From NCBI GenBank assembly GCA_919902655.1, contig CAKKRL010000057.1, positions 7,356 to 41,613 of the forward strand: 34,258 nt of DNA, written 5' to 3'. The notes below the pieces were generated by a model, which had not been told where the DNA came from, made no database searches, and saw only the letters and a list, made by a program, of their open reading frames with translations. This DNA is from Thermodesulfovibrionia bacterium. GTDB taxonomy: Bacteria; Nitrospirota; Thermodesulfovibrionia; JACRGW01. Each line of letters opens with the position of its first letter. Position 1 is the stretch's first letter. Positions 14,143 through 29,880 of this stretch are shown here, piece after piece. The translations under genes and the position numbers were made by a program.

Positions 14143-14166
14143 AGGGTATTATAACATCATTTCTAT

Positions 14167-14195
14167 TTGCATAGAAAAGCTACCTCTGGTATAAT
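14167..14195 (+). promoter_or_regulatory. Strong sigma-70-type promoter of the 14220-19264 operon
   Basis: TTGCAT (14167-14172), a 17-nt spacer, then TATAAT (14190-14195), with TGg immediately upstream forming an extended -10. Confidence 0.5.
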
Positions 14196-14219
14196 CAAAC
14201 CCTTAGCGATGTCTCGGCT

Positions 14220-15146
14220 TTGATGAAACAGATGAGTAAAATCAGTGTGGGGATCCCCCGGGCCCTCCTTTATTACGAGTTTTTCCCTGTCTGGAAGGCA
14301 TTTCTTGAAGAACTGGGTCTGAATGTCATTGTATCAGGAAATACTACTGACAGGGTAGTAAGGAGGGGTATCGGTTCCACAGGGGGAGACCTTTGCCTCC
14401 CTGTAAAGACATTTCTCGGCCATGTCCATGAGATAAAAGACTCTGTAGATTTCCTCTTTATACCGAGATATATAAGTATCGAAGAGGACGCCTATATGTG
14501 TCCCAAGTTCCTTGGCCTTCCTGATATGGTGAGGGCAGCGATCAGCCCCCTCCCTCCGGTCATAGATTCTCCGATGAATATAAAAAAGGGTGGGCTTAAA
14601 GAGTTTTTTGATAGTATAAGCAATGTCCTTAGGAAAGATAAAAGAGTAATCGAATCCGCCTACAGCAAGGCATTGAGTTCGGCCGGTGCTATTACATATA
14701 ATGATAGCTCGTCATCAGGCGATTTAAAGATTGCCCTCCTGGGAAGGCCCTATGTCCTTTACGATTCCTGTATCAATCGGTCAATTATCCAGAGACTTAA
14801 ATCACTCGGTGCTGATGTAAAGATAAAGACCATGTTTTCACAGGAGGAAATAAAGAAAGCAATGTCACTCTTGCCTAAGGTATTATACTGGAGTACCGGG
14901 AAAGAGGTAGTAACCTCGGCTTATCACTTCATGAAGAAAAGCGTGGTTGATGGCATAATAAATCTCGTATCCGTTGCCTGCGGGCCTGACTCTTTTACTT
15001 CAGAGATAATAAACGGCCTCAAAAAAAAGATGGATGATATTCCCTATATGGTCCTCTATCTCGATGAACATACATCCGATGTAGGTGTTCTTACGAGGAT
15101 CGAAGGTTTTCTCGACATGATAAGAAGGAAAAGAGGTGAGGCATGA
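14220..15146 (+). CDS. 2-hydroxyacyl-CoA dehydratase / BCR-family subunit (DUF2229-like, activase-associated)
   Basis: The N-terminus GIPRALLYYEFFPVWKAFLEELG is the characteristic start of the activase-associated domain. Conserved-looking Cys at DLCLPVK, YMCPKF and VACGPD. The true start may be ATG 14223 or 14232. Confidence 0.75.
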   Translation: MMKQMSKISVGIPRALLYYEFFPVWKAFLEELGLNVIVSGNTTDRVVRRGIGSTGGDLCLPVKTFLGHVHEIKDSVDFLFIPRYISIEEDAYMCPKFLGLPDMVRAAISPLPPVIDSPMNIKKGGLKEFFDSISNVLRKDKRVIESAYSKALSSAGAITYNDSSSSGDLKIALLGRPYVLYDSCINRSIIQRLKSLGADVKIKTMFSQEEIKKAMSLLPKVLYWSTGKEVVTSAYHFMKKSVVDGIINLVSVACGPDSFTSEIINGLKKKMDDIPYMVLYLDEHTSDVGVLTRIEGFLDMIRRKRGEA

Positions 15147-16216
15147 GACTCACAGTCCCCCATATGGGCCTTCTCGATATCGCATACACAAGGGTCTTAA
15201 GGAACCTCGGTGTAGATATGTTGCCGCCTCCAAGACCGAATACAAACACACTTAACCTCGGAGTTAAATACTCACCAGAATATGCCTGCATCCCTTTTAA
15301 GCTGAACCTGGGTAATATGATAGAGGCCCTCGATAAAGGTGCCGACAGTATCATCATGCCTGGAGGCTATGGGCCATGCCGGTTCGGCTATTACGGCGTA
15401 ATACAGGAACAGATACTTAAGAACCTGGGATATAAATTTTCCATGGGGAGGACTGATAACCCTGATAGCCTCAGGGATATGGTCATGACCATAAAAGAGA
15501 TCGGAGGCCTCTCAAATAAATGGAAGGCATATACGGTATTCTATCTAATCCTTATGAGGATGTCAGCCCTCGACAGGGCAATGAAGTTATATCATTACTA
15601 CAAGCCGAGAGAAAAGAGAAAGGGGGAAACTGACGAGGCGCTCAGAGACGCAATCAGCATTATCGATTTATCGCTTACATTTGGATCTCTCTTCTGGGCA
15701 GAATTAAAGGTGAGGGGAATATTCAAAAAGGTTTCTATCCGGAAAGATATAAAACCTTTAAAGATAGGAATACTCGGTGAGATCTTCATAGTGATAGAGC
15801 CCTTTGCAAATATGAACATCGAAAAGAAGCTCGGGGAGCTGGGAGTCGAGGTCGTGAGGGGTGTCTGGCTCGGTGACTGGCTTAATGACCGTTTCAGGTT
15901 CAAGCCCTTCAGGAGGAACCAGAACAAGCTCGCTACAAAATGGGCATATCCATATCTCAGATACCCTGCAGGCGGGGAGAGTATTGAGTCTGTGGGAAAG
16001 ACGATACTTTTTCACAGGAAGAGGATCGATGGCGTTATCCATCTGATGCCATTTACATGCATGCCCGAGCTTGTGGCATTTACAATTCTTGAGAGGATAA
16101 GGAAGGATTTGAATTATCCTGTTATATCCCTTGTCTTTGATGAGCAGATGTCAGAGACGAATTTGATTACAAGGCTCGAGGCCTTTGTGGATATGATAAA
16201 GCGGAAAAGAAAATGA
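15143..16216 (+). CDS. 2-hydroxyacyl-CoA dehydratase D-component-like subunit
   Basis: PEYACIPFKLNLGNMIEAL, GYGPCRFGYYG and MPFTCMPE motifs (three Cys, as in the HgdA/B-type Fe-S subunits). ATGA overlap with the previous gene. Confidence 0.75.
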   Translation: MRLTVPHMGLLDIAYTRVLRNLGVDMLPPPRPNTNTLNLGVKYSPEYACIPFKLNLGNMIEALDKGADSIIMPGGYGPCRFGYYGVIQEQILKNLGYKFSMGRTDNPDSLRDMVMTIKEIGGLSNKWKAYTVFYLILMRMSALDRAMKLYHYYKPREKRKGETDEALRDAISIIDLSLTFGSLFWAELKVRGIFKKVSIRKDIKPLKIGILGEIFIVIEPFANMNIEKKLGELGVEVVRGVWLGDWLNDRFRFKPFRRNQNKLATKWAYPYLRYPAGGESIESVGKTILFHRKRIDGVIHLMPFTCMPELVAFTILERIRKDLNYPVISLVFDEQMSETNLITRLEAFVDMIKRKRK

Positions 16217-17166
16217 AAGGCTATTTAGGCATTGATGTCGGTTCGGTAACGACAAAACTTGTCCTCCTCGATGAAAGGAAGGATGTCCGCTGGCAGCTTT
16301 ACACGAGGACGAAAGGCCAGCCCATAGTCGCCATCCAGGAGGCATTGAAATTACTCGAAAGGGACACAGGTAACGGGCTCACTGTCCTCGGTGTCGGGGC
16401 TACAGGAAGCGGAAGGAACCTGGCAGGGCACCTCCTCGGTGCAGATGTCATAAAGAATGAGATTATAGCCCATGCTGTAGCAGCGATAGACTGTATGCCT
16501 GAGGTGAGGACAATCCTCGAGATAGGAGGGCAGGATTCAAAGCTTATAATTATCAGGAACGGTGTTGTAGTTGATTTTGCGATGAACACAGTCTGTGCTG
16601 CAGGGACAGGTTCATTTCTTGACCATCAGGCCTCCCGCCTCGGCATCCCTATCGAGGAGTTCGGGGAATATGCCCTTTCATCATCATCGCCTGTCAGGTT
16701 GGCAGGAAGGTGCACGGTCTTCGCAGAGTCAGACATGATCCATAAACAGCAGTCAGGCCATAAGGTTGAGGACATAATCGCAGGCCTCTGCGAGGCACTC
16801 GTAAGGAACTACCTCAATAACCTCGGAAGGGGTAAGGAAATCCTTGAGCCTGTTGTCTTTCAGGGTGGGGTTGCGGCAAATAAGGGAATAAAGAAGGCCT
16901 TTGAGGAGGAGTTGAAGAAAGAAGTAGAGGTTGTGCAGAACCACTTGATTATGGGTGCCATCGGTGCTGCTATACTTTCAATGGAAAACAGGGGAGACAA
17001 TGGTTCAAACTTCAGGGGGTTTTCGATTGCAAGGGAGATACTCGCTACAAAGACCTTTACCTGTGAGGATTGCTCAAATAGCTGCACCGTTGTTTCTATA
17101 GCAGGAGAAGAAGGTGCTATAGCCTCCTGGGGTGGCACCTGCGGGAAATGGGAGGGCAATCCTTGA
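16213..17166 (+). CDS. BadF/BadG/BcrA/BcrD-type ATPase (HgdC-like activase)
   Basis: ASKHA phosphate-1 motif GIDVGSVTTKLVLLD. Cluster-ligand contexts CAAGTGSFLD and GRCTVFAESD. Cys-rich tail CEDCSNSC...TCGKW. ATGA overlap with the previous gene. Confidence 0.9.
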   Translation: MKGYLGIDVGSVTTKLVLLDERKDVRWQLYTRTKGQPIVAIQEALKLLERDTGNGLTVLGVGATGSGRNLAGHLLGADVIKNEIIAHAVAAIDCMPEVRTILEIGGQDSKLIIIRNGVVVDFAMNTVCAAGTGSFLDHQASRLGIPIEEFGEYALSSSSPVRLAGRCTVFAESDMIHKQQSGHKVEDIIAGLCEALVRNYLNNLGRGKEILEPVVFQGGVAANKGIKKAFEEELKKEVEVVQNHLIMGAIGAAILSMENRGDNGSNFRGFSIAREILATKTFTCEDCSNSCTVVSIAGEEGAIASWGGTCGKWEGNP

Positions 17167-17918
17167 AATTTCAAATTGTTGAATTCCTTAATCCCCCTCA
17201 ATCCTCCTTTAGTAAAGGGGGACTTAGGGGGATTATTAACAAAGGGGGGTTGTGGGGGGATTTTCACATTTTAAATTTTATTTTTTCATTATTAATTCTA
17301 TTGATTTTTTTACCTGTTAACTCTTTTGGGGAGATTGAAAAAGCCCTTAAGGACCTCGAGGAAAAGCAGAAGGCAATAGATACATGGGAGGCGGATTTTA
17401 TTCAGACAAAGGTAACATCTCTTATGTCGGATAAGATCGTATCTGAGGGACATGCAGTCTTCAAAAGACCTAACCTCATCCACTGGCGCTATACAAAAGG
17501 GAGTAACCTCCTGATGGTGTTTAACGGAAATGAGGCATGGCTCTATTATCCTAACCTCAAAGAGGCAGAGAGATACAAGAACATCGAGAGGATGATCAGG
17601 AAATTTCCTCTCGCCTATGGCCTTGAGATAGAAACCCTCAGGAAGTACTGGGATATATCTATCATTTCTGATTCCCCCAGCGGATTTATTTCCCTGGAAC
17701 TCCGTCCTAAAGAAAAGGAAAGCAGAAGGGTATTTGAGAAAATAACCTTATTAATAGAAAGGAAGATAGGGGTTCCCGGGAAGGTCCAGATCTTTGAGCC
17801 AGGAGGGGACCATACTATAATAGAGTTCAAAGAGATAAGGGTTAATGGAAAAATCCCATCAGATTTTTTTACCTTTAAACCACCTCCCGGAGTAAAGGTG
17901 ATTACACCCTTTGAATAG
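17148..17918 (+). CDS. LolA-like periplasmic lipid/lipoprotein carrier protein (start uncertain)
   Basis: Hydrophobic leader ILNFIFSLLILLIFLPVNSFG, then a LolA-type pattern FIQTKVTSLMSDKIVSEGHAVFKRPNLIHWRYTKGSNLLMVFNGNEAWLYYP. Candidate starts are ATG 17148, TTG 17163 and TTG 17250. The palindromic repeats lie between them. Confidence 0.65.
   Translation: MGGQSLKFQIVEFLNPPQSSFSKGGLRGIINKGGLWGDFHILNFIFSLLILLIFLPVNSFGEIEKALKDLEEKQKAIDTWEADFIQTKVTSLMSDKIVSEGHAVFKRPNLIHWRYTKGSNLLMVFNGNEAWLYYPNLKEAERYKNIERMIRKFPLAYGLEIETLRKYWDISIISDSPSGFISLELRPKEKESRRVFEKITLLIERKIGVPGKVQIFEPGGDHTIIEFKEIRVNGKIPSDFFTFKPPPGVKVITPFE
17189..17262. repeat. C-run/G-run palindromic element, copy 2, plus an adjacent half copy
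   Basis: TAATCCCCCTCAATCCTCCTTTAGTAAAGGGGGACTTAGGGGGATTA occupies 17189-17235. The right-arm-only copy AAAGGGGGGTTGTGGGGGGATT occupies 17241-17262. Confidence 0.8.
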
Positions 17919-17920
17919 AG

Positions 17921-19264
17921 ATGAAAGTCCTTCTCATATATCCCGGCAGTTCTGACATATACCGTAAGGTCGGTTTCATTCTCCCGCCACTCGGTCTCGC
18001 ATATATAGCCTCTGTACTTAGAGGGAATAACTATGATGTGGAGATCTTCGATATGAAGGTGTCCGGGAAGGAGCCTGAACTCTCAAGGTACGATGTTGTG
18101 GGGATCTCTGCAGATGCGATGCGTTACAAGGAAGGCCTCCGGATAGCAAAGTCCGCAAAAGGAGAAGGCCGCACTGTCATCATGGGAGGTCCACATCCCA
18201 CATTCCTCGACGAGGATGCCCTGAGGAACGGTGCAGATTTCGTTATAAGGGGAGAAGGTGAAGAGACAGCACTTGAACTACTTGAGGCGATAAAAGGAGG
18301 TCTATCGCCTTATGGAGTAAAAGGGATAAGTTTTCACAATAACGGAGGTGTCCATAGAACCCCTGCCAGAAAACCTGTAACCGATCTTGATTCATTGCCG
18401 CTCCCTTCGAGGGATATCCTTCCAATGCACTCTTACAGGACCCTCGAGATGGGGAAGAGAAAAGTGACATCAATGATTACGAGCAGGGGGTGCCCATACG
18501 GTTGCACCTTCTGTGCATCCTCTGAGTTCAGCGGCTATAGCTGGAGGGCGAGGAAACCTGAGAGTGTCGTCAATGAGATAGAACACATTGTGAATAATTA
18601 CGGTTTCAATGCAATAGCATTCCTCGACGATAACTTCACACTCAACCCAAGAAGGGTTATAGAGATATGCGATGAGATAATTAGGAGAGGGATAGACATT
18701 TACTGGTGGTGCTTTTCGAGGGCTGATATACTTTTAAGGAATGAAGGTATGGTAAAGAAGATGGCAGAGGCAGGGGCAAGGTATACCTTTATAGGGTTCG
18801 AGAGCGGAAGGCAGGAATTCCTCGAAGGTCATAAAAAAAGGACTAAGGCCTCAGACGCGAAGGAAACAATAAACCTGCTAAGAAGATACGGAATTGAAAC
18901 CCATGCAAGCTTCATAATAGGTGGTATTGATGAGACTGAGGAAATGGCAAGGGATACCATAAGATTTGCAAAGGAACTGAGGCCTGAGGCTGCACAGTTT
19001 TCTATCCTCACACCCTATCCGGGGACGAAACTGTTCGAAGATGTTAAAGATAGGATTACGACATACGACTGGGATCTGTATGACTGTCTCCATTCTGTCG
19101 TAACCCTTGACCATCTCAAAAAAGAAGAAGTAGAGAGACTCGTCAGGCAGGCATACATTTCCTTCTATGTAACTCCGTCGAGGATCTTCAGGGGACTCCT
19201 GAGCGGTATCAGGGGGAAAGGGATAAAGCTTAGTTCGATACTTAATATACTCAGAGGAATCTGA
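17921..19264 (+). CDS. B12-binding-domain radical SAM enzyme (class B)
   Basis: N-terminal cobalamin-domain pattern MKVLLIYPG...PPLGLAYIASVLRGNNYDVEIFD...GGPHPTF. Radical SAM motif SRGCPYGCTFC. Starts 2 nt after the LolA-like stop. Confidence 0.85.
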   Translation: MKVLLIYPGSSDIYRKVGFILPPLGLAYIASVLRGNNYDVEIFDMKVSGKEPELSRYDVVGISADAMRYKEGLRIAKSAKGEGRTVIMGGPHPTFLDEDALRNGADFVIRGEGEETALELLEAIKGGLSPYGVKGISFHNNGGVHRTPARKPVTDLDSLPLPSRDILPMHSYRTLEMGKRKVTSMITSRGCPYGCTFCASSEFSGYSWRARKPESVVNEIEHIVNNYGFNAIAFLDDNFTLNPRRVIEICDEIIRRGIDIYWWCFSRADILLRNEGMVKKMAEAGARYTFIGFESGRQEFLEGHKKRTKASDAKETINLLRRYGIETHASFIIGGIDETEEMARDTIRFAKELRPEAAQFSILTPYPGTKLFEDVKDRITTYDWDLYDCLHSVVTLDHLKKEEVERLVRQAYISFYVTPSRIFRGLLSGIRGKGIKLSSILNILRGI

Positions 19265-19552: not shown

Positions 19553-19819
19553 ATGAAAACCGCATATGACAAGAAACACATAGCATGGTTTACAAATATT
19601 GAAGAATTAGACCTTGATAAAAAAGAAAACAGAAAATGGTGGATTAAACAGGTTCTTCTAAAGGGCCGCATGGAAGATATTAAAGACCTCGACTTCAATG
19701 AAGTTGAAAGGTTACTACCAGAATTCTATTTGCCTAAACCTATAAAGAAATTATGGGAGAACTACTTTGAGTGGAAAAGAAAAGGGACCATTGACGGAAC
19801 TCCAGCAAGAGATCATTAA
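19553..19819 (+). CDS. Small partner protein of the AbiEii-like toxin (putative antitoxin)
   Basis: 88 aa. AGGAG Shine-Dalgarno at 19541-19545. Extended -10-like TGgTAAAAT at 19520-19528. The 3' end overlaps the nucleotidyltransferase ORF. The function is inferred only from position. Confidence 0.5.
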   Translation: MKTAYDKKHIAWFTNIEELDLDKKENRKWWIKQVLLKGRMEDIKDLDFNEVERLLPEFYLPKPIKKLWENYFEWKRKGTIDGTPARDH

Positions 19820-20624: not shown

Positions 20625-21275
20625 CTACTTTGCGACCGCTTCTATCTCGAGGTTAATCGCATTTGTCCTTATCTTCCATTCTGCGAAATCTGATTTATGA
20701 AGTATGGACTCCGCTTCCTCAGTGGTGTAAGATGCCATAAGAGAGGACACAAATAGATTCCTCATATAATTGTCCCTTATCAAGGGGGCGAATATAAGAT
20801 TTTCTTCTCTCCGTCTGAGGTCGTAGATAAGGGCGGTTCCGTCTTTCTTCAAAACCCTCTTCACCTCATTGAATACCGGGGCCGCATCCTTCCAGTGGTG
20901 GAGGGAGACGTAGCTTACTACTGCCTCAAAACTATTCTTTTTGAAAGGAATACTTGAGGCATCAGACCTTATGAATTTTACCCTTGACCCTAATCCCTCA
21001 TCTATGATTGCCTTCTTTGCGATATTCAGCATATCCATCGATATATCAACACCGAAGACCTCAATATCCCTGAATCCCCTTGCGATCTCGATGCAGAGAA
21101 GCCCTGTTCCTGAACCGATGTCCAATACCCTGCCTGAAGAAATACCTGAGGACGAGAGCGACTTAATGATCCTCTTATGCCCTAATGGGTAGAGATATTT
21201 TTTCGCCTGGAGGTTATAGACCTCAAGCTCCTCATGATTCCCCATTACCTCCGGTTCTTCGATTCTTCCTCTCAC
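20625..21275 (-). CDS. Class I SAM-dependent methyltransferase
   Basis: Motif I VLDIGSGTGLLCIEIA, then the acidic motif VFGVDIS. GTG start 3 nt after the desaturase stop. Confidence 0.85.
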   Translation of the reverse strand: MRGRIEEPEVMGNHEELEVYNLQAKKYLYPLGHKRIIKSLSSSGISSGRVLDIGSGTGLLCIEIARGFRDIEVFGVDISMDMLNIAKKAIIDEGLGSRVKFIRSDASSIPFKKNSFEAVVSYVSLHHWKDAAPVFNEVKRVLKKDGTALIYDLRRREENLIFAPLIRDNYMRNLFVSSLMASYTTEEAESILHKSDFAEWKIRTNAINLEIEAVAK

Positions 21276-21278
21276 AAT

Positions 21279-22742
21279 TTAAATTGATATTCCTTCTTTC
21301 CTGCAAATCTCAACAGCAGACTTAAAACCGGAATACGCTGATGTTAATACGCCTCCACCCATTCCACCCCAATGTCCTGCTATAAAAAGATTATGCATGT
21401 TATGCCTGAAAGGTTTTATATAACCGGGCACCTGTTTCCAGCCATATGCGGCACCCTCATAATTAAAGGTATATTTTTTTAAAGTCAGCGGAGTAGCTGC
21501 TTCAATATGCACAATGTTTTTTCTGATATCCGGGATAAGATTTTCTGCCTTTTGCAACAATCTATCAATAAGCTCTGATTTATGTTTATTCCATTGCTCA
21601 ACAAACCCGAAGTTGACCATTTCATGAAGTATCAGCGAATGGTGTCCGTCAGGGGAAAGGGTTTTATCTTCAATTGTAGGGACGGTGATGCCGAGAGATG
21701 ATTTATTCCCGAAAGCAGATTTGGGATTGAATAAATGTTCCATATCGTAGGATGGGAAATAACCAATACTCGAACATCCCGGCAGATTAGATAGCCTCCC
21801 TCTGATCCCGACGTACACCATAAAGAAAGATGATGATATGCCAGGGCATCTCAGCCTTTCTTCTGCTGAGGAAACATATTTACCTCCTATTAGTTCTCTG
21901 AATGTATGCATGAAATCAGCATTGGAAATAATGAACCTTCCTGTATATATCTCTTTGTCTGCGGTCTGAACACCATAACAGAGGTCCCCTTCTAAAAGTA
22001 TCTTTTCTACCTGCTTGTTGAAGATTACTTTCCCGCCCTTGTTTATTATACCATCAACAAATGTATCAGAAAGTTTCTGGTACCCTCCGACAGGGCGATA
22101 TGCCCCCATTCTGAAATAGGACATTACCAGTGATATCATCGATAATACTGAAGTCTTTGAGGGTGGCAACCCTATAAAGGGACATCTGTCTGAGAGGATG
22201 GAAATCAATCTTCTATCTGTGATAAAATCTTCAATAAAACCACTGTAAGAATCGTTCACAAACTTATAAAGAATATTATATTCAGGAAAAGGCCCTAATC
22301 TGCCACCGATAAGTGATTTGTTTATTTTCTCTATCAAAGAATATATTTCGTCTATTTTCCTGAATAGATTTTCTATGCCATCTTTCTCAAAAGGGAAAAG
22401 GCTTTTAAGATTATTAATATATACATTAATATCACTGTCCACATTTATTTCGACATCAGGGAATATGCTTGCACGTATAGGATCAACCCTTACAAAATCT
22501 ATAAATCTTTCTGCACCGAGCCTTTCAAGAACAAGACTTATTATTCTTTCCGGACCAACCCCTGCTATGCAATCTACTACCGAGTTAAAAATAAATCCTT
22601 TTCTTATAAACGAGCTCAAATAACCTCCTGGCTTGCCCTGTTTTTCTATTACAAGAACTTTAAACCCCTTTGAAGACAAAAGGCTTGCACTAATCAGTCC
22701 ACCAATCCCACTTCCAATAACAATAATGTCAAAATCTTTCAC
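21279..22742 (-). CDS. CrtI/phytoene-desaturase-family FAD-dependent oxidoreductase
   Basis: N-terminal Rossmann motif DIIVIGSGIGGLISASLLSSKGFKVLVIEKQGKPGG. 487 aa. C-terminal FIAGHWGGMGGGV is typical of the family. Confidence 0.85.
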   Translation of the reverse strand: MKDFDIIVIGSGIGGLISASLLSSKGFKVLVIEKQGKPGGYLSSFIRKGFIFNSVVDCIAGVGPERIISLVLERLGAERFIDFVRVDPIRASIFPDVEINVDSDINVYINNLKSLFPFEKDGIENLFRKIDEIYSLIEKINKSLIGGRLGPFPEYNILYKFVNDSYSGFIEDFITDRRLISILSDRCPFIGLPPSKTSVLSMISLVMSYFRMGAYRPVGGYQKLSDTFVDGIINKGGKVIFNKQVEKILLEGDLCYGVQTADKEIYTGRFIISNADFMHTFRELIGGKYVSSAEERLRCPGISSSFFMVYVGIRGRLSNLPGCSSIGYFPSYDMEHLFNPKSAFGNKSSLGITVPTIEDKTLSPDGHHSLILHEMVNFGFVEQWNKHKSELIDRLLQKAENLIPDIRKNIVHIEAATPLTLKKYTFNYEGAAYGWKQVPGYIKPFRHNMHNLFIAGHWGGMGGGVLTSAYSGFKSAVEICRKEGISI

Positions 22743-23949
22743 AATTCACCTTTTTTAAAGTAATACATAAATGATTCCCGCCGGTAGAGAACCCATTGAC
22801 GAGGGCGGCTTCGATATTTTTCCTCCTCGATTCATTCGGCACGCAGTCGATATCACACTCAGGGTCAGGGTCTTTATAATTTATCGTCGGTGGGATTATA
22901 CCTTCTTTTACTGAAAGAGAAGCCACTGCCACCTTTATCCCGCCTGACGCCCCGATCTCGCCTATCATAGATTTTATAGAAGAAGCAGGTGGATGGCTAT
23001 TCCCAAATACTGACTTTACAGCTTTTGATTCAAGGGCATCGAGTAAGCTCGAAGAATCAGCAGAGGCTGAGATATAATCTATATCTTCAGGAACAAGTCC
23101 CCCGTTCTTTATCGCCCCTTCCATGGCCTTACAGAGACCGGTCGGTTCTTCGTCCCATCCGAGAAGTGGGGCGTGAGTGCCATAGAAACCAAAACCTGCG
23201 ATTTCTGCATACATCCTTGCATTTCTTTTTACAGCGTCTTCCATCCTCTCAAGTATTAAAAACCCTGCCCCTTCTCCGAGAATAATACCGTTCCTCCTCC
23301 TGTCATAAGGGCAGGATTGCTCGCTACCGGTTGCAAGGACATTGAGAATGTCATGGACCTGATAAAGGATCCAGCAGATCTCATCGCAGCCTCCGGTAAT
23401 AATAATATCCGCTTTTTTTCTACGTAAAAGATTATATCCGTAAAAAATTGCCTGTTCTGCCGACGACTGCTTATGGACGACTGTAACATTTGGCCCTTTA
23501 ATCTCGAGTTCAATGGCTATATAACTTGCAGGTGCGTTTGATACGGTATTAGGAAAGATAAAGGGATTTGCCCTCGAAGGACCGTAATCTACAAGTCCGT
23601 TGAGATATTGAGAGGTGCTTTTTAGGCTACCGTATGCTGTACCTATAACAACACCTGCCCTATCTTGCCAGGAAAATTCCTTAAGTCCTGCATCCTCTAA
23701 TGCAAGCCTTGCTCCTGCCACAGCAATATGGGAAAGCCTGTCCATCTTTCTTTCGTTCGATGAACTTATAAAATCTGAAGGATTAAATTCCCTGACCTCA
23801 GCACCCTTATGGGATGAGAACCTCGCTGTATCGAATGAACTTATCTCCCTTATCCCTGATATACCCTTAAGGGCATTCGCCCAGAAAGCTTCTTTTCCTA
23901 TCCCTATAGGGGTGATGAGACCTATTCCTGTTATGACTATTCTTTCCAT
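22729..23949 (-). CDS. Ketosynthase beta / chain-length-factor-like subunit (catalytic triad replaced)
   Basis: KAS fold (MERIVITGIGLITPIG). The active-site Cys position reads HKQSS (Cys to Gln). The two His positions read ASADSS and GEIGASGG. 13-nt overlap with the upstream KS gene. Confidence 0.85.
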   Translation of the reverse strand: MERIVITGIGLITPIGIGKEAFWANALKGISGIREISSFDTARFSSHKGAEVREFNPSDFISSSNERKMDRLSHIAVAGARLALEDAGLKEFSWQDRAGVVIGTAYGSLKSTSQYLNGLVDYGPSRANPFIFPNTVSNAPASYIAIELEIKGPNVTVVHKQSSAEQAIFYGYNLLRRKKADIIITGGCDEICWILYQVHDILNVLATGSEQSCPYDRRRNGIILGEGAGFLILERMEDAVKRNARMYAEIAGFGFYGTHAPLLGWDEEPTGLCKAMEGAIKNGGLVPEDIDYISASADSSSLLDALESKAVKSVFGNSHPPASSIKSMIGEIGASGGIKVAVASLSVKEGIIPPTINYKDPDPECDIDCVPNESRRKNIEAALVNGFSTGGNHLCITLKKVNCERF

Positions 23950-25205
23950 CTTCTAAAGACGAGACAGGCGTTATTTCCGCCAAAGGCAAATGAATTTGAG
24001 AGGGCAATATTTATATCCGCTTCCTTCGCTTTGTTTGCAACATAATCGAGATCACATTCAGGGTCTCTCGCAGAGTAATTTATTGTCGGAGGGATGATCC
24101 CATTATGTATAGAGAGAACAGATACTACGGCCTCTATTGCACCTGCAGCGCCGAGGGTGTGACCGACCATCGCCTTGATTGAACTTACAGGAACACCTGT
24201 ATCATTGCCGAGGACCGACTTTATGGCCCTTGTCTCCATAAGGTCATTGAGTGGCGTAGCTGTGCCGTGGGCATTTATATAATCTACATCTTTAGGTGTT
24301 ACTCCTGCATCTTCTAACGCATTCTTTATTGCCATGGCCGCGCCTTCTCCGTCTGGTAGAGGGGCTGTCATATGTCCTGCATCACAGCTTAACCCATAGC
24401 CTGAAAACTCTGCATAGATCCTTGCCCTCCTTTTGATTGCATGCCCGAGTTCCTCGAGTATAAGGAAGGCCGCCCCTTCTCCGAGGGAAAGACCGTTTCT
24501 TTTCATGTCGAAAGGTTTGCATGGTTCGGGGTCAACCAGTCTCAGGGAATTGAATCCGCTATATGTAAGCCTGCAGAGAGATTCTACGCCACCGGCCATC
24601 ATTGCATCCTGATAACCGAGTCTTATCATATCAAGGGCATGACCCAGTGCAACTGCACTCGAGGAGCAGGCTGTCATGATAGTTGTCCTTGGGCCTGTAA
24701 GACCCCAGTAACCTGCAATAAGATCAGCGGTTGTTGCAGGCTGTTGTGAGATAAGAATAGAAGGTTTTACCTTCTTCCTTTTATAGACACCCTCATAATA
24801 GACCTCTCCAGCAAGCATCCCTCCTACACCGACGCCTATACTGACACCCATATTTCGGAGTTCAAATCCCCCCTTACCCCCCTTTTCTAAAGGGGGGGTG
24901 GGGGGATTATGGGGGAAGATAGACGCATCTTCCATTGCCATCTTAGTTGCCAAAAGGCCAAGCCTGTCACTTCTCGAAAGTCTGTCTTTTCTGTATACTC
25001 CATGTCTGAAGTCTGATGTCTGAAAGTCAGGTATCTCTTTGACCTCTGCGGCTATATGTGTCCGATAATCCCTGTGGTCGAAAAGCCCGAATTCTTTTAT
25101 CCCGCATTTACCCTCTATGAGGCTATGCCAGAAATCGGTAAGGTTACTTCCTATTGCTGTGATAATACCAAGGCCAGTAATTACAACTCTGCGAGTATTA
25201 CTCAT
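23937..25205 (-). CDS. Beta-ketoacyl synthase (KAS II-like, catalytically complete KS-alpha)
   Basis: Cys-His-His triad contexts TACSSS, NAHGTATP and VGHTLGAAG. I prefer ATG 25205 (MSNTRRVVITGLG, 8-nt overlap with the upstream stop) over the track's GTG 25241. Confidence 0.9.
   Translation of the reverse strand: MSNTRRVVITGLGIITAIGSNLTDFWHSLIEGKCGIKEFGLFDHRDYRTHIAAEVKEIPDFQTSDFRHGVYRKDRLSRSDRLGLLATKMAMEDASIFPHNPPTPPLEKGGKGGFELRNMGVSIGVGVGGMLAGEVYYEGVYKRKKVKPSILISQQPATTADLIAGYWGLTGPRTTIMTACSSSAVALGHALDMIRLGYQDAMMAGGVESLCRLTYSGFNSLRLVDPEPCKPFDMKRNGLSLGEGAAFLILEELGHAIKRRARIYAEFSGYGLSCDAGHMTAPLPDGEGAAMAIKNALEDAGVTPKDVDYINAHGTATPLNDLMETRAIKSVLGNDTGVPVSSIKAMVGHTLGAAGAIEAVVSVLSIHNGIIPPTINYSARDPECDLDYVANKAKEADINIALSNSFAFGGNNACLVFRRWKE
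24864..24909. repeat. C-run/G-run palindromic element, copy 3 (inside the KS-alpha gene)
   Basis: AAATCCCCCCTTACCCCCCTTTTCTAAAGGGGGGGTGGGGGGATTA. Translated on the minus strand as NPPTPPLEKGGKGGFE. Confidence 0.8.
25004..25031. repeat. Heptamer tandem array GTCTGAA (3 good units plus 1 degenerate)
   Basis: gtctgaa gtctgat gtctgaa agtcagg. Translated on the minus strand as PDFQTSDFRH in the KS-alpha N-terminal region. Confidence 0.7.
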
Positions 25206-26226
25206 TCTTCCAGCAGGTGGGGTCTGATGCGAAAGGGTCACCTGTCATCTGATATGCTACTCCCCTGCATCCATAACAGGAAGGACTCAGGTTACAGTCC
25301 CTGCAGGGACCCTTAAGGTTCTCTTTTATGTTCCTTAGTCCCTTACGCAGCGATGAATTATTGAGGATCGAAGAGAGACTGTCATTCCTTATATTCCCTA
25401 TAGCGATATCAACTCCGGCACAGGGGTTAACATTACCGTTGGAGGTTATGAGACAGCTATAATAACACCTGTTACAGGTGAGTGCGGCTATCGGAGGTTT
25501 GGGTTCCCATTTGTATCCAAAATATTTCTTATCCATGTCCGAGAGTTTTTCAAAAAGCGCCTTGATCTCTTTTGGTGAAACCCAGAGGGAATTATTCCTT
25601 GCCCTCCCCTGCGGGGTAATGGTTTCAAAATATGGTATAATCCCCTTCTCCCTTGCCCACATCCATATATCAGGTAGTTCCTCTATGTTCTGGCGGCATA
25701 TTATCGTTTCCACACCGAGCTGGATTCCATTCTCGTGATAGCCCACATCGAGAAGTCTCTGGATACCCTCGGTTATCTTCTCGTATGTACCCTTAATCCC
25801 GCCTGCCAGATAGTCCTGTATCTCTTTATTAAAACTGTTAAGCTTTACACAGACAGAGACCTTATGGTCAGAAAGTTTCTTTGCCATTTTTCTGGATATA
25901 GCAGTTCCGTTTGTAAAAACAATAGTCGGGATATTTCTACCCTTCAGGTAAGCAGTTATTTTAAAGAAATCAGGATATATAAGTGGTTCACCTCCGCCTA
26001 CTATGCTCACCTTTTTAGCGCCGAGATCGACCGCCTGATCGATTACATCGAAGATCTCTTCAGTTGTCAACTCATTCTCTAAAGGCTCACCTCCATTTGT
26101 ATAACAGTATATACATCTGAGGTTACACCTCCTGCTCAGTTCGAGGTCGAGTGTGAGGAGCCTGCCATCCCTCATCGCCCTTTCTATCTCTTTCCAGTCA
26201 AGGTCAAGGCCATAGACCTTTTCCAT
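25198..26226 (-). CDS. Radical SAM enzyme with a SPASM-type C-terminal Cys-rich domain
   Basis: CX3CX2C motif in LSRRCNLRCIYCY. C-terminal clusters CNRCYYSCLITSNGNVNPC and GPCRDCNLSPSCYGCRG. Confidence 0.85.
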   Translation of the reverse strand: MEKVYGLDLDWKEIERAMRDGRLLTLDLELSRRCNLRCIYCYTNGGEPLENELTTEEIFDVIDQAVDLGAKKVSIVGGGEPLIYPDFFKITAYLKGRNIPTIVFTNGTAISRKMAKKLSDHKVSVCVKLNSFNKEIQDYLAGGIKGTYEKITEGIQRLLDVGYHENGIQLGVETIICRQNIEELPDIWMWAREKGIIPYFETITPQGRARNNSLWVSPKEIKALFEKLSDMDKKYFGYKWEPKPPIAALTCNRCYYSCLITSNGNVNPCAGVDIAIGNIRNDSLSSILNNSSLRKGLRNIKENLKGPCRDCNLSPSCYGCRGVAYQMTGDPFASDPTCWKNE

Positions 26227-27508
26227 TATCCCTCCTGTCGAAAAACCTTCTTGGCTTTCTGTCTCCCTCTTTATACTGCATGTCCCTTATCATCTCAGGG
26301 TCGTGGAGTGTTATCTCCGGGGTAACCCTTGCATGGGCATTGATCTTTTTCCCTATCTCTTTCCTGAATAACTCATCCCTTCTCCCGGAACCGACTCTCA
26401 CATGGAGTTTCTCACCGTGGTCATCGCCTATATACGCCTCGAGTACATAATTTACAACTTCAGGTATCCCGTTAAGGATGTCTTCAACCTGAGAAGGGTA
26501 GATTGCTGTCCCTTTCAGTTTTATTGCCTGTTTCTCCCTTCCGAGGATCGGTCCTATCCTCGGGGAGCTCCTTCCGCATTCACATTTTTCGTTTATCATA
26601 AAGGTAATATCCCCTGTCCTGTATCTAATAAGTGGCATTGCCTCTGTTCTGAAGGTAGTAACAGTTAGCTCCCCTGTTTCCCCTTCAGGCAGGACATTAC
26701 CCTTCTCATTTATAACCTCACAGTAAACAAGGTCGGGATGGATATGCCCTCCCCTCTTTACCTTACATTCGCACATCGATGTGGCAATCTCTGTATTCCC
26801 GTATGTAGAATAGAGATCGAGGTCCCAGATTTCCTGGATAGCCTTGCCGATATTATTCATGCTGAAATCCCTGTTCTTTATACTCTCTCCTATCAGGACA
26901 GCCTTCTTGAGGCCAAGGTCTTTAGGTCTAATGCCTTCATTTTCTGCCTCCTTAGACAAGGCGATAAGATATGTCGGTACACTCACTATTCCGTTCGGCC
27001 TAAGCTCCTTCATCACCTTAAGGTGCATCTTTGTGTTCTTCGTACCCACCCTTATAGCCTTTGCACCGAGCCCAGTTATTCCGAGGTAATATGCCATCCC
27101 TGCTATAAACATGCTGTCGAGGGTCACTGCAAGCTGAAAGGTATCCTGATCGGTTGCCCCTGCAGTAGTAAAACTTTTCATCTCGTTCTCCTTCAGGCGG
27201 ATAAGGTCATTTGATGAGAGGGCAATATATATCGGTGCACCAGTTGTCCCGCTGGTATTAACATATTCTACAACCCTCTTTTTAGGGACAGAGAGAAAGT
27301 CGTTATTTCTTTTTTGAAGATCTTCTTTTGTTGTAAATGGAAGGGATCCTATATTTTCAAGGGTAACATCACCTGGATCTATTTTACTAAGCCTCTCTTT
27401 ATAAAAAAGGGAGTTTTTCAGGATGTAATTCAGGGACTCTCTTAAAAGCTTTTCCTGTGCCTTCCTGATTTCTTCTTTGTTTTTAAATTCTAACTCGTCT
27501 ATTCTCAC
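26204..27508 (-). CDS. Phenylacetate-CoA-ligase / coenzyme F390 synthetase-family adenylate-forming enzyme
   Basis: P-loop-like motif NTSGTTGAPIY. YGNTE and RYRTGD motifs. 434 aa, the short ANL form typical of PaaK. Confidence 0.85.
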   Translation of the reverse strand: MRIDELEFKNKEEIRKAQEKLLRESLNYILKNSLFYKERLSKIDPGDVTLENIGSLPFTTKEDLQKRNNDFLSVPKKRVVEYVNTSGTTGAPIYIALSSNDLIRLKENEMKSFTTAGATDQDTFQLAVTLDSMFIAGMAYYLGITGLGAKAIRVGTKNTKMHLKVMKELRPNGIVSVPTYLIALSKEAENEGIRPKDLGLKKAVLIGESIKNRDFSMNNIGKAIQEIWDLDLYSTYGNTEIATSMCECKVKRGGHIHPDLVYCEVINEKGNVLPEGETGELTVTTFRTEAMPLIRYRTGDITFMINEKCECGRSSPRIGPILGREKQAIKLKGTAIYPSQVEDILNGIPEVVNYVLEAYIGDDHGEKLHVRVGSGRRDELFRKEIGKKINAHARVTPEITLHDPEMIRDMQYKEGDRKPRRFFDRRDNGKGLWP

Positions 27509-29880
27509 GGCCTTTTAAGGATAAGAAAGGATGATTTTTTAGTATAGCAGAGGCTCAGTATTCCTACAACAGAAAATTTCTCTTTCCATAGGGATGCCGC
27601 AGCAACAGAGAGAGGCCCGTGCGCCCCGAAGGTCTCACCCAGAAGTGGTTTCAGATATACAAGAGAAGGGTTATGCCTGAATATAGAACCTATAGCCTTC
27701 TGCTCGATCCTGTCTATAAAAGTAGAGTTGGCGCTCAGAAACAGGGCATCTATACTTTCCGGGTTGCATCCTGCCTCTCCGAGGGCATCCTCGATAGATC
27801 TCGTTATTGCCCTATTAAAATCCCTGTTACAGGAGAATCCGTATCCTATGACCTCGGCATAGATCCCTGCACCCCTTTTAAGGGCACCGGAGATATCTTC
27901 AATTATAAAAAAAGAAGCCCCCTCTCCCGGGATAAATCCATTATCTTCAAAGGGTACTATATCCCTGCTCTTTGAGAGCGACTTCAGCCTGCTCAGGCAT
28001 TTATGGAGTATCTCCCCGTATGCGTCAACCCCTCCTGCAAGGATAGCATCGGCATGTCTCTTCCTGAGCGTAAGTGATCCCAGACCTATTGCATCGAGGC
28101 CGGAAGTCCAGCCAGAACTCATGGTCAGGTTCACCCCTTTCATCTTAAACTCTATAGCAAGCTCCCCTGTAGCAGCACTCGGAATTGTGTAGGGGAAAAG
28201 AAAGGGGCTCACCCCCTCCGGCCCCAGTAGGAGCAGATCCCTGTAAAACCTCTCGTTTGTTATGAGGCTACCGTATGCCGTACCCAGGACTATACCGTTT
28301 CTTTCACCATCAGGGGTTAATCCTGAATCTGTTATTGCGAGGTGAGAACCTATCATAGCAAGGCTGGAGACCCTGTCGAGCCTCCTGAACCTGTCAGCCT
28401 GTGCGACTTCCTGTTCCTTTCCATATCGGGTTTCGTTTAAATTGGCGGCGAGCCATTCATCAGGGATAATGTCTTTTATCTCTGAAGAGAACAAATATTG
28501 ATAAGGCGATGGGTCGAATGAACCTATTTCAGAAATACCTGACTTTTTATTTTGAAGACCCTTACAGAAATCATCCTTACCAATACCAACTGGCGAAACA
28601 ACACCTATGCCTGTAATTACTGGCCTCCTGCTCCCCCTCACCATTCCTCTCCCCTTAGGGGAGAGGGCGGGGGTGAGGGGGCATTTACTCAAAATAACTG
28701 CCGCATTATTCCCTCCAAAGGCCGAGGATGTAGACAGGGAGATATCAACTTCTGCCTTTCTCGGTTTGTTAGGTATATAGTCAAGGTCACATTCAGGGTC
28801 GGTTTCATTATAGTTTGCCGTCTGTGGCAGCAATCCCCTTTTCATAGCAAGTATAACCATTATAGCCTCAAGCGCACCTGAGGCACCGAGACAGTGCCCT
28901 GTAAGTGATTTTATAGAATTTACAGGAATCCTGTAGGCACCCTTTCCGAAGACCTTTTTAAAGGCGAGGGTCTCCATCCTGTCATTATAGAGCGTACCAG
29001 TTCCGTGGGCGCTTATGAACCCGATATTGTCTTTACCTGCATTACTATCACTTATCGCCATCCTGATTGCCCTCGCAAGGCCTGAGCCGTCCCTCGATGG
29101 ACCTGTCATATGCTCTGCATCAGAGCTCAAGCCATAACCAAGTACCTCTGCCCATATCTCTGCACCCCTTTTTTTAGCATTGGAGAGTTCTTCGAGTATA
29201 AGGAAACCTGCGCCTTCACCGAGTGCAAGGCCTGTCCTGTCCCTGTCAAAGGGTCTCACGGGTTCATCAGTTGTAGCTCTCAGGATATCAAACCCGCTGA
29301 ATACAAAGGGAGAAAGGACATCCACGCCCCCACAGATCATAATATCTGCCCTCCTGTCTCTGATAATCTCAAGACCGAGGCCTATCGCCCCTGTCCCGGA
29401 GGCACAGGCGATAGAGAGTGTGATATTTATTCCAGAGAGTCCGAAATGTTTTGCTATCTCTGATGAAGGGCCATAGTAAGGGGACTGGAGTATCAACCTT
29501 AAGGGATCATCGCCTCTGGCATGAACCGTATGGCTCATGCCTCTGTAATATTTCTCTCCTGATGACATGCCTCCGAGGGAAGTGCCGAGGACTATGCCGA
29601 TATCATTTTTTGACGGGTCTAATCTGGAGGATCTAAGTGCCTCTTCTATTGCGGTGATCGCATACCGGGAGGCCATGCTGTACCTCGTGGTGAGACTGCC
29701 GAACCATCCGGAGAGACCCTTTATCTCTGCTGCCTTTCTGCAGCGGTATCCGTTTGTATCAAAACCCCCGATCTCCTTTATCCCTGTCTTGCTGTCTATC
29801 AAGGCATCCCAGAAATTATCGAGGCCGATACCAATGGCAGAGACAACTCCCATCCCTGTAATTACAACTCTTTTATTCAT
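27505..29880 (-). CDS. Fused ketosynthase didomain: KS-alpha (complete triad) + KS-beta-like (triad lost)
   Basis: N-terminal domain: IACASG, SAHGTGT, TGHCLGASG. C-terminal domain: the Cys position reads SSGWTSG, and the His positions read SANSTF and GETFGAHG. The domains are joined by CPLTPALSPKGRGMVRGS, which is encoded by a palindromic repeat. Confidence 0.85.
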   Translation of the reverse strand: MNKRVVITGMGVVSAIGIGLDNFWDALIDSKTGIKEIGGFDTNGYRCRKAAEIKGLSGWFGSLTTRYSMASRYAITAIEEALRSSRLDPSKNDIGIVLGTSLGGMSSGEKYYRGMSHTVHARGDDPLRLILQSPYYGPSSEIAKHFGLSGINITLSIACASGTGAIGLGLEIIRDRRADIMICGGVDVLSPFVFSGFDILRATTDEPVRPFDRDRTGLALGEGAGFLILEELSNAKKRGAEIWAEVLGYGLSSDAEHMTGPSRDGSGLARAIRMAISDSNAGKDNIGFISAHGTGTLYNDRMETLAFKKVFGKGAYRIPVNSIKSLTGHCLGASGALEAIMVILAMKRGLLPQTANYNETDPECDLDYIPNKPRKAEVDISLSTSSAFGGNNAAVILSKCPLTPALSPKGRGMVRGSRRPVITGIGVVSPVGIGKDDFCKGLQNKKSGISEIGSFDPSPYQYLFSSEIKDIIPDEWLAANLNETRYGKEQEVAQADRFRRLDRVSSLAMIGSHLAITDSGLTPDGERNGIVLGTAYGSLITNERFYRDLLLLGPEGVSPFLFPYTIPSAATGELAIEFKMKGVNLTMSSGWTSGLDAIGLGSLTLRKRHADAILAGGVDAYGEILHKCLSRLKSLSKSRDIVPFEDNGFIPGEGASFFIIEDISGALKRGAGIYAEVIGYGFSCNRDFNRAITRSIEDALGEAGCNPESIDALFLSANSTFIDRIEQKAIGSIFRHNPSLVYLKPLLGETFGAHGPLSVAAASLWKEKFSVVGILSLCYTKKSSFLILKRP
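28633..28681. repeat. GC-rich nested palindrome (second subfamily) forming the KS-KS linker
   Basis: CCCCCTCACC ATT CCTCTCCCC TTA GGGGAGAGG GCG GGGTGAGGGGG, with both outer and inner arms complementary. Confidence 0.8.

Follow-up and report, generated by a model that had tools for sequence, protein, structure and literature searches.

A candidate fully split relative of the DUF2229 enzymes PlsA/PlsR and Ger, encoded with a LolA-like carrier and ketosynthases in Nitrospirota

We analysed a stretch of 34,258 nucleotides from a Thermodesulfovibrionia bacterium of the phylum Nitrospirota (assembly GCA_919902655.1, contig CAKKRL010000057.1, positions 7,356 to 41,613 of the forward strand), hereafter called the window, which carries a compact operon of five plus-strand genes. 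In order, these encode two putative reductase subunits of the Pfam family DUF2229 (gene A, 14223..15146; gene B, 15143..16216), an ATP-dependent activase of the HgdC/BcrAD type (gene C, 16213..17166), a secreted LolA-fold carrier (gene D, 17163..17918) and a radical-SAM (S-adenosylmethionine) enzyme with a B12-binding domain (gene E, 17921..19264). Judged by sequence, A-B-C is a fully split member of the DUF2229 branch made up of three polypeptides, and a relative of the plasmalogen synthase PlsA/PlsR and the glycerol ester reductase Ger. The conserved core in the clade of the window consists of A-B-C, the LolA-like gene and a ketosynthase/chain-length-factor (KS/CLF) pair.

The listing of open reading frames (ORFs) bears out the gene order of the original prediction, which had been made from the sequence alone. 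It contains five co-directional plus-strand ORFs that span 14223-19264 (A 14220/14223-15146, B 15143-16216, C 16213-17166, D 17148/17163-17918, E 17921-19264), with ATGA overlaps at 15143 between A and B and at 16213 between B and C, and with a spacing of 2 nt between D and E (TAG-AG-ATG at 17916-17923). Gene A most likely starts at ATG 14223, because the resulting 307 amino acids (aa) equal the length of a 99%-identical database protein (P0001). C and D most likely overlap by TTGA, with the start of D at TTG 17163 and the stop of C at TGA 17164-17166. An upstream start of D at ATG 17148, with a 19-nt overlap, was set aside for this TTG, since the latter gives the N-terminus (M)KFQIVEF, in agreement with (M)KIEIQKSKF, the start called for the orthologue at the related locus L004, where the start of the LolA-like gene overlaps the stop of that locus' own activase gene. 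With the TTG start of D, all four operon junctions are compact.

Genes A and B had been read as iron-sulfur subunits of the HAD (2-hydroxyacyl-CoA dehydratase) type, an assignment that the Pfam results replace. A matches DUF2229 (PF09989) with 149 bits (1.5e-43) and B with 42 bits (1e-10), whereas the HGD-D family (PF06050) matches only the last ~65 residues of A and B, with 22.6 and 28.8 bits against a cut-off of 28.4. By these matches, the true family of both subunits is DUF2229 and not HGD-D. The three-cysteine patterns originally noted in both ORFs are real (C59, C94 and C254 in A, numbered from the ORF that begins at 14220; C49, C79 and C306 in B) and vary little or not at all among split and fused homologues: 41-46 of 43-46 aligned sequences keep them, fused PlsA-type proteins included.

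A sequence search of the Protein Data Bank (PDB) with A and B gave marginal C-terminal matches only (E = 0.06-0.26), and we therefore used an AlphaFold2 model of A, built on 20 homologues (pLDDT 83), for a structure search with Foldseek. The top 18 PDB matches of this model are the (R)-2-hydroxyisocaproyl-CoA dehydratase HadBC, DCCP, BzdNO and MbdON (E = 1e-8 to 2e-5, TM about 0.5), the best of them being chains of 3O3M/3O3N (E = 1e-8, TM about 0.5). Beyond these 18, the matches are unrelated. At the level of its predicted fold, A is a member of the superfamily of benzoyl-CoA reductases (BCR) and HAD enzymes.

Gene C encodes one separate activase of 317 aa, which reaches the TIGR00241 model with 202.7 bits (cut-off 125.4) and matches Pfam BcrAD_BadFG with 1.6e-49. 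Its best PDB matches are MbdQ, HgdC, HadI and DCCP-R. Together with the fold of the A model, these results uphold the earlier view of a split BCR/HAD-superfamily enzyme with a single HgdC/BcrAD-type activase. In addition to the cluster-bridging Cys128 and Cys167, C has a C-terminal extension of ~60 residues with a CX2CX3C...C motif (C284, C287, C291, C310), and all six of these cysteines are invariant in 72 of 72 homologues, among them four fused PlsA-type proteins. The PDB matches cover residues 4-263 only, so that the solved activases appear to lack a counterpart of this Cys4 tail. The CX2CX3C...C tail accompanies activases that partner DUF2229 proteins, split or fused, and is absent from the range of the PDB matches to HgdC, HadI, MbdQ/P and DCCP-R. 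It may form an additional iron-sulfur or zinc site, and could mark the PlsA/Ger-type branch as a sequence signature.

PlsA and Ger are the only DUF2229 enzymes for which we found an experimentally shown function in the literature, and both were identified recently. Their chemistry, the conversion of sn-1 esters of glycerolipids into vinyl or alkyl ethers, was established by heterologous expression. The published architectures are Act1-Act2-Red1 plus Red2 for PlsA/PlsR, and BBDHDDH or BBDHDHDH for Ger (B, BcrAD_BadFG; D, DUF2229; H, HGD-D), with Thermotoga maritima Tmari_0479 and Desulfatibacillum alkenivorans SHJ90043 as named Ger examples. PlsA/PlsR is split in Clostridium (C. perfringens CPE1194/1195) and Fusobacterium and fused in Listeria, Enterococcus and others, and Listeria is named as carrying active plsA/plsR orthologues. 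For the comparison, the PlsA architecture was taken from later papers and from annotated Listeria, Fusobacterium, Collinsella, Haliovirga and Paraclostridium records (tblastn, "plasmids" collection), and Ger was compared by its description only. Our reference proteins were the fused 1475-aa orthologue of Listeria monocytogenes, the two-gene version of Fusobacterium (975 + 404 aa), fused proteins from Collinsella, Haliovirga and Paraclostridium, and a split trio from Monoglobus. The fused Listeria and Paraclostridium proteins each contain two BcrAD_BadFG stretches, followed by DUF2229.

BLASTP aligns A to residues 672-967, B to residues 1021-1410 and C to residues 326-642 of the Listeria PlsA orthologue; C also matches its residues 11-265, though more weakly. 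A, B and C are thus colinear with its Red1, Red2 (PlsR) and Act2 modules, and this module-for-module match is what identifies A-B-C as a probable fully split relative of PlsA/PlsR and Ger. The window enzyme shares with PlsA/PlsR the BcrAD_BadFG activation domain, two DUF2229 reduction modules with an HGD-D-like C-terminus, three cysteines per reduction module, the bridging cysteines of the activase and the C-terminal Cys4 motif, and both are oxygen-sensitive enzymes of anaerobes. The three-cysteine sets and the Cys4 tail, common to the PlsA-type proteins, link the trio with the DUF2229 branch, and not with the HAD or BCR enzymes proper. The two systems differ in that the window has three polypeptides and one activation domain, whereas PlsA is made of one or two polypeptides that carry Act1-Act2-Red1 and, in some cases, Red2. 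In the window, activase, A and B are separate, and no tandem pair of activation domains is joined to a first reduction module (BBD...). The context differs as well, since the window genes lie within a cluster of KS/CLF, radical-SAM and LolA genes, while the PlsA gene is solitary or next to a TetR regulator. With Ger the window enzyme has in common the same Pfam families, an occurrence in anaerobes only and a proposed lipid substrate, but Ger is one fused protein and the window enzyme is split, with a single B domain. The search criteria of the Ger paper (E<=1e-50, at least 30% coverage of a ~1400-aa query) would probably miss split subunits of ~310 aa.

We placed the subunits in a joint neighbour-joining tree of alpha and beta sequences (~320 columns, Poisson distances, 100 bootstraps; Ger not among the sequences). 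In this tree, the fused PlsA-type proteins form a clade of their own (97/100) and all split proteins are monophyletic (90/95). The link to PlsA/PlsR and Ger that had been suggested for the operon is correct at the family level, in view of the DUF2229 matches and the alignment to Red1, Red2 and Act2, but the window proteins stand outside the sampled PlsA clade.

The same data bear on a catabolic role of the trio, either as 2-hydroxyacyl-CoA dehydratase in amino-acid fermentation or as class I benzoyl-CoA reductase in the degradation of aromatics. The window enzyme follows the three-gene alpha/beta/activator logic of the dehydratases HgdAB/HgdC, HadBC/HadI and FldBC/FldI: its activase belongs to TIGR00241, A has the HadB/HadC fold, and each subunit offers three cysteines as cluster ligands. 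It likewise resembles the class I benzoyl-CoA reductases (BcrABCD, BzdNOPQ, MbdONPQ) and the YjiLM-type DCCP/DCCP-R, in which a BcrAD-type ATPase drives a low-potential electron into a HAD-fold module, and both groups turned up when structures were searched with A and sequences with C. This similarity is confined to the superfamily, however. A and B belong to DUF2229 and do not match HGD-D over the full length, and the activase carries a Cys4 tail that lies outside every PDB match to HgdC or HadI. All HAD, BCR and DCCP equivalog models remain far from their cut-offs, with 16.9 bits against 700 for HadC, 126 against 578 for BcrA, 74 against 313 for BcrD, 82 against 380 for BzdQ and 18.7 against 350 for the double_cubane model NF040772. 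There is a single activase gene and no BcrA/BcrD-type pair, and the cysteines are distributed 3+3 over two subunits, in contrast to DCCP with six on one subunit. Neither the window nor the ~20 related loci inspected contain a CoA-transferase, 2-hydroxyacid dehydrogenase, dienoyl-CoA hydratase or other catabolic pathway gene, in agreement with the earlier observation that the operon lacks a fermentation or aromatic-degradation context. As also expected in the original prediction, the subunits do not cluster with fermentation dehydratases or benzoyl-CoA reductases: A and B group with DUF2229 proteins. We regard a catabolic HAD or BCR role as scarcely credible and as effectively refuted by the Pfam matches, the equivalog scores and the tree.

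The protein encoded by gene D has a signal peptide with the h-region ILNFIFSLLILLIFLPVNSFG and belongs to the Pfam LolA family (3.6e-20; 72.8 bits against a cut-off of 23.6), with LolA structures among its PDB matches. It stays below the housekeeping LolA equivalog TIGR00547 (93.8 against 112) and below the cut-off for the flexirubin-type LolA2 (93.3 against 125), being about equally close to both models. The idea that D is the housekeeping LolA was rejected, as its score lies under the equivalog cut-off.

Gene E, which starts 2 nt after D, has the features of a class B radical-SAM enzyme: an N-terminal B12-binding domain (PF02310, 77 bits, 1.4e-21), a Radical_SAM domain (PF04055, 91 bits, 1e-25) and the CX3CX2C motif as CPYGCTFC. 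It falls into no defined equivalog, since its best NCBIfam matches, BchE, HpnJ and HpnR, are all far below cut-off, and it reaches 117.7 bits against the 360 required for TIGR04072. Its closest solved structures are AprD4 (6FD2) and OxsB. AprD4, the nearest, is named a diol-dehydratase rather than a methylase, and the use of cobalamin by E is predicted from its domain.

Downstream of the operon lies a set of mainly minus-strand genes, which together with it make up a cluster of ~20 kb that resembles type II fatty-acid or polyketide synthases, with two KS/CLF pairs, a FlxY-like ligase, a CrtI-like oxidoreductase, a methyltransferase, three radical-SAM enzymes with B12-binding domains and one of the SPASM type. 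A SAM-dependent methyltransferase (20625..21275, minus strand), which is syntenic in L001 (91%) and L004 (77%), is followed on the same strand by an FAD oxidoreductase of the CrtI/carotenoid-isomerase family (21279..22742; carot_isom 5.4e-50, below cut-off). Next come a chain-length-factor-like ketosynthase with Gln at the position of the active-site Cys and both catalytic His absent (22729..23949, minus strand), an active ketosynthase with Cys-His-His present (23937..25241, minus strand), a radical-SAM/SPASM enzyme that is syntenic in L004 (25198..26226, minus strand) and a PaaK/FlxY-like adenylating acyl-CoA ligase (26204..27508, minus strand; NF053551 FlxY, 468 bits, cut-off 520). A fused protein of an active KS and an inactive CLF-like half is encoded at 27505..29880 (minus strand). 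A second radical-SAM enzyme with a B12-binding domain, of 430 aa, lies at 30719..32011 (minus strand), and its orthologues (46-54%) accompany A-B-C at loci in Nitrospirota and Thermodesulfobacteriota. The third, on the plus strand at 32070..33476, is a member of TIGR04072, the "lipid biosynthesis B12-binding/radical SAM protein" (371 bits against 360), and its end overlaps a small polytopic membrane protein with no family match (33460..33894, plus strand). No acyl carrier protein (ACP), ketoreductase or dehydratase was recognised among the translations of window ORFs of at least 60 aa, shorter ORFs not having been scanned against Pfam.

The distribution of the enzyme reaches far beyond this cluster type. 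At least 596 relatives of A occur in species-representative genomes, and the beta subunit yields 332 clusters at 50% identity with E<1e-30 (1070 with E<1e-10), among them alpha-beta fusions of ~700-770 aa. Synteny was assessed by tBLASTn and BLASTP of all window proteins against 87-95 loci, a sample that comprised the best 80 of about 600 loci and a few metagenome contigs, several of them phylogenetically close. In the Nitrospirota clade that holds the window (beta 64-88% identical, bootstrap 89/99), the LolA-like gene follows A-B-C in 10 of 11 non-redundant loci, the exception being a 7.7-kb contig, which confirms the LolA-like gene as a conserved neighbour. KS and CLF-like KS genes come after LolA on the same strand in L005/L006, L008, L020, L022, L026, L030 and L095, and are found within 7 kb, in convergent orientation, in L001, L004 and the window, so that every locus of this clade that is long enough has KS and CLF. 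A CrtI-like gene stands between A and B in L005, L006 and L022. Orthologues of E (57-87%) were found in L001, L002, L004 and L008; elsewhere in the clade, other B12-domain radical-SAM genes or the CrtI-like gene replace them. Those of the 430-aa enzyme (46-54%) occur here in L008, L020 and L026, and in the sister clade in L016, L028 and L056. For the clade of the window, the best 80 loci included none from a cultured host.

Accordingly, the five-gene arrangement that had been expected to co-occur is kept only in close relatives (at least 65% identity), with E present in some loci and missing from others, while the conserved unit extends beyond five genes. The ketosynthase/desaturase cluster, which had been described as lying beside the operon, is indeed there, but the conservation of A-B-C with LolA and KS/CLF marks it as a part of the same system and not as a mere neighbour.

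The sister clade (Thermodesulfobacteriota, Syntrophobacterales, Syntrophorhabdus; beta 50-56%), joined to that of the window with bootstrap 100/98, shows a different arrangement. One activase is combined with two successive DUF2229 alpha/beta pairs in L007, L016, L028 and L094, which suggests that two different catalytic modules are served by one activase. Several of these loci have a gene like that of the 430-aa radical-SAM enzyme and three have a CrtI-like gene; no KS and no LolA gene was found in them. The one locus of this clade that was annotated with Pfam, L094, contains an LpxL-family acyltransferase, an MMPL exporter and a SPASM radical-SAM enzyme. Its first DUF2229 gene appears as two short ORFs of 162 and 158 aa.

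How widely the trio occurs could speak for a housekeeping function, in which A/B/C would be a split isofunctional Ger/PlsA that acts on bulk membrane phospholipids and stands next to KS/CLF through a general clustering of lipid genes. The module set and the cofactor ligands are the same as in PlsA and Ger, the trio is widespread in strict anaerobes whatever its context, and the split or fused state is labile, as seen from the alpha-beta fusions and from PlsA/PlsR itself, which is split or fused by lineage. However, the linkage to LolA and KS/CLF holds down to 41-50% identity of the alpha subunit and persists through rearrangements, toxin-antitoxin insertions and strand changes, and three loci have a CrtI-like gene in the middle of the trio. 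Modification of bulk inner-membrane phospholipids would need no dedicated secreted LolA paralogue, and the clade of the window is apart from the sampled PlsA clade. We therefore think a housekeeping function improbable.

Instead, we propose with moderate confidence that A/B/C performs an ATP-coupled reductive tailoring of the acyl product of the cluster, possibly from ester to ether, and that the product then reaches the outer membrane with the help of the LolA-like protein. This reading draws on the DUF2229 relatives, which reduce glycerolipid esters, on the acyltransferase and the MMPL exporter in the sister clade, and on the secreted LolA-like protein in the clade of the window. An LpxL-type enzyme, which forms esters, and a lipid exporter beside a member of an ester-reductase family fit the proposed chemistry. 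The ester-to-ether step, taken alone, is a tentative proposal. In analogy to the enzyme family, C would form a homodimer with a [4Fe-4S] cluster bridged by Cys128 and Cys167, would take up a low-potential electron, possibly via its C-terminal Cys4 site, and would push it into the A/B heterodimer upon ATP hydrolysis. A and B would each hold a [4Fe-4S] cluster on three cysteines with an open iron site, where a carbonyl that is hard to reduce could be bound and undergo a reduction of the ketyl-radical type and dehydration.

The enzyme would then be the tailoring arm of the ~20-kb cluster and not a stand-alone system, in a pathway whose four steps are given here in order of decreasing support. First, KS/CLF would make an unusual acyl chain on the housekeeping ACP. 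Second, the radical-SAM and CrtI-like enzymes could alkylate, desaturate or cyclise this chain. Third, A/B/C would reduce the carbonyl of an acyl ester or thioester, the likeliest conversion, known from PlsA and Ger, being that of an acyl ester into an alk-1-enyl or alkyl ether. Fourth, the secreted D may shield the hydrophobic product on its way through the periplasm and bring it to the outer membrane, the role proposed for ApeL.

Several observations weigh against this proposal. Identity to the fused PlsA-type proteins is low (21-27% for A, 19-22% for B), and A and B were not placed within the sampled PlsA clade in the tree, which lacked Ger; with 19-27% identity and a separate split clade, isofunctionality with PlsA is not to be assumed. 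The window shows no recognisable gene for an acyltransferase, ACP, ketoreductase or dehydratase, which leaves the ester to be reduced hypothetical. The interleaving with KS/CLF and CrtI-like genes fits ACP- or CoA-bound intermediates equally well. Finally, ~60 loci from Firmicutes, Actinomycetota and Chloroflexota (34-49%) contain the A-B-C trio only, and since the trio stands there outside any lipid-cluster context, the ancestral substrate appears not to be tied to KS/CLF products.

The interleaving leads to the main alternative, a radical enzyme that works within the assembly line, on CoA- or ACP-bound intermediates during chain construction. It could catalyse a HAD-like dehydration or a BCR-like, Birch-type reduction of a polyenoyl thioester, or it could reduce an aryl starter activated by the FlxY-like ligase and so provide skipped dienes or alicyclic starter units for KS/CLF. 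To our knowledge, all biochemically understood HAD and BCR enzymes act on thioesters. In seven relatives, A-B-C is interleaved with KS/CLF and CrtI-like genes on one strand; the cluster has no ketoreductase or dehydratase genes of its own according to the ORF translations, a FlxY/PaaK-like CoA ligase is present, and the fold of A is as close to HadBC and BzdNO/MbdON as to anything else. On the other hand, the nearest characterised relatives, PlsA and Ger, act on glycerolipid esters and not on thioesters, the HadC and BcrA scores are far under their cut-offs, and A-B-C occurs without any KS in the sister clade of Thermodesulfobacteriota. The minimal clusters L005, L006 and L022 have no ligase, which also makes dearomatisation of an aryl-CoA unlikely as the conserved role of the enzyme. 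Overall, we consider an action on thioester intermediates to be possible but rather unlikely.

The tailoring and export reading also finds parallels in aryl-polyene and flexirubin clusters, for which an export route by a LolA-like protein, an RND transporter and an acyltransferase has been proposed, with ApeL as the LolA-like carrier. These clusters share with the window the KS/CLF pairs, a FlxY-like adenylating starter ligase, a SAM-dependent methyltransferase and a dedicated LolA-like periplasmic chaperone. In the sister clade, the only loci with an MMPL exporter, such an RND/MMPL protein and an acyltransferase that would serve delivery to the outer membrane join the set. They differ from the window in that no ACP, ketoreductase, dehydratase, thioesterase or LolB-like gene was found there, and the FlxY and LolA2 models stay below cut-off. 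Moreover, the accessible parts of the published aryl-polyene and flexirubin gene tables list neither a BCR/HAD-type enzyme nor a B12-domain radical-SAM enzyme, unlike the window.

A second parallel is provided by the "ladderane-like" type II fatty-acid synthesis clusters of Kuenenia and Desulfotalea (Rattray et al. 2009). According to the available parts of their description, these contain divergent FabF paralogues, some with dead active sites, together with genes for phytoene-desaturase-like, phenylacetyl-CoA-ligase-like, SAM-dependent methyltransferase, radical-SAM, B12-domain radical-SAM and small membrane proteins, whereas a DUF2229 enzyme, an activase and a LolA-like gene go unmentioned there. 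The FlxY-like ligase of the window corresponds to their "phenylacetyl-CoA ligase", one of the radical-SAM enzymes is a TIGR04072 member, and the membrane protein at 33460-33894 may be the "new membrane protein" that is syntenic in these clusters. "Ladderane" clusters (an antiSMASH class) of unknown function have been reported in many non-anammox anaerobes, and "ladderane-like" clusters with an unknown product repeatedly from anoxic metagenomes. We found no paper on a BCR/HAD-type enzyme with LolA and ketosynthase, nor on such an enzyme within flexirubin or aryl-polyene clusters.

Every part of the system comes from a known family, the chemistry of the superfamily is known, and the type of the neighbouring cluster has already been described as orphan. 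Three features appear to be new: a split subfamily of DUF2229 proteins that stands apart, the stable way in which it is coupled to KS/CLF and a LolA paralogue, and the Cys4 tail that the activases share. The locus thus reveals a large uncharacterised split subfamily in hundreds of anaerobe species, and the linkage of this subfamily to radical-SAM, ketosynthase and lipid-export genes in Nitrospirota and Thermodesulfobacteriota offers a genetic handle on the orphan clusters. If the enzyme does introduce ether bonds on a cluster-specific chain, it would help to trace the producers and pathways of unusual bacterial ether lipids that are used as environmental biomarkers; if it acts on thioester intermediates, it would put ATP-driven ketyl-radical chemistry to a new use, in biosynthesis instead of catabolism.

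A bolder form of the tailoring proposal, which we offer as a speculation and think unlikely to hold, is that the split DUF2229 enzyme supplies the oxygen-independent tailoring step so far missing from the orphan "ladderane-like" clusters in non-anammox anaerobes. Together with the B12-domain and SPASM radical-SAM enzymes and the CrtI-like enzyme, it would convert the KS/CLF chain into an envelope lipid of a new class, perhaps an alkyl lipid that is ether-linked, branched, cyclised or cross-linked and that the LolA paralogue delivers to the outer membrane, by a radical chemistry that would be new for PlsA, Ger, HAD and BCR enzymes alike.

Among the distant loci that contain the trio only, those of spore-formers stand out by their position. 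In L014, L015, L021 and about 20 other Firmicutes loci (e.g. L014:715-10972), the trio lies between spoVAC/AD/spoVAF and a lysA-like decarboxylase gene, which hints at a sporulation-linked role in spore-forming Clostridia. The order upstream of the trio is a dacF-like gene, a sigma factor in the position of sigF, spoVAC, spoVAD and a GerA/SpoVAF-like gene, and the genera include Thermincola, Desulfotomaculum, Desulfofundulus, Pelotomaculum, Orenia and others.

Expression of the operon had been attributed to a near-consensus promoter, and the site is present. A sigma-70-like candidate with an extended -10 element lies at 14166..14195 on the plus strand and reads TTGCAT-17 nt-TGgTATAAT; our scan scores the same site as TTTGCA-18-TATAAT with an upstream TG (10/12 matches). 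It is the best-placed site in the 77-bp gap between gene A and a divergent Omp85-family gene. Promoter-like sites are, however, not clearly enriched across the region (17 found, compared with 11.1 +/- 3.6 in shuffled sequences), so that the site is a plausible candidate only; terminator-like sites show no excess across the region either. An Rfam search of the window detected no riboswitch or leader, a cobalamin riboswitch included, and its sole match was a tRNA at 34029-34101.

The product of the divergent gene (11731-14142, minus strand) is 803 aa long, has an Omp85 barrel domain at its C-terminus and contains a segment with weak similarity to M1 peptidases. The gene adjoins the operon in L001 and L002 (89%) and does not do so in L004. 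Further upstream, at 1134-4581, a NikR-like regulator and a cobalt/nickel transporter of the CbiM/N/Q/O energy-coupling-factor type are encoded, ~10 kb from the region with the three B12-domain radical-SAM genes.

Two insertions interrupt the conserved gene order. In the window, an ORF for a nucleotidyltransferase toxin of the AbiEii type (PF08843, 1.2e-15), with a small ORF upstream of it, occupies 19553-20453, between E and the convergent methyltransferase gene. As the methyltransferase gene directly abuts gene E in L001 and L004, this region looks like a toxin-antitoxin insertion into the cluster. In L095, a BrnT/CopG pair is inserted between the activase and the LolA-like gene.

The window also contains a GC-rich, perfect-hairpin element of ~51 nt (TTAATCCCCCC..CCCCCCTTTAnTAAAGGGGGG..GGGGGGATTAA) in three copies, at 1965-2015, 17188-17238 and 24863-24913. 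All three lie in frame within coding sequence, namely in the CbiM-like gene, in the signal peptide of the LolA-like protein and in the active KS encoded at 23937..25241, and the element encodes PPxxP(F/L)xKGGxxG(I/F) in either orientation. The 51-nt copy at 17188..17238 sits at the 5' end of D, in the n-region of the signal peptide, and the LolA-like genes of the close relatives L001 and L004 have no copy. This pattern recalls the palindromic elements of Rickettsia that insert into genes. A second, distinct GC-rich palindrome (..CCCCTCACC..TCTCCCCT/AGGGGAGAGGG..GGTGAGGGG..) at 28629-28683 encodes PLTPALSPKGRGMVRG and lies precisely where the active KS and the inactive CLF-like half of the fused 791-aa protein meet. 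The other KS/CLF pair of the window and its orthologues in relatives are separate genes, and the fusion may have arisen when the palindrome bridged two genes.

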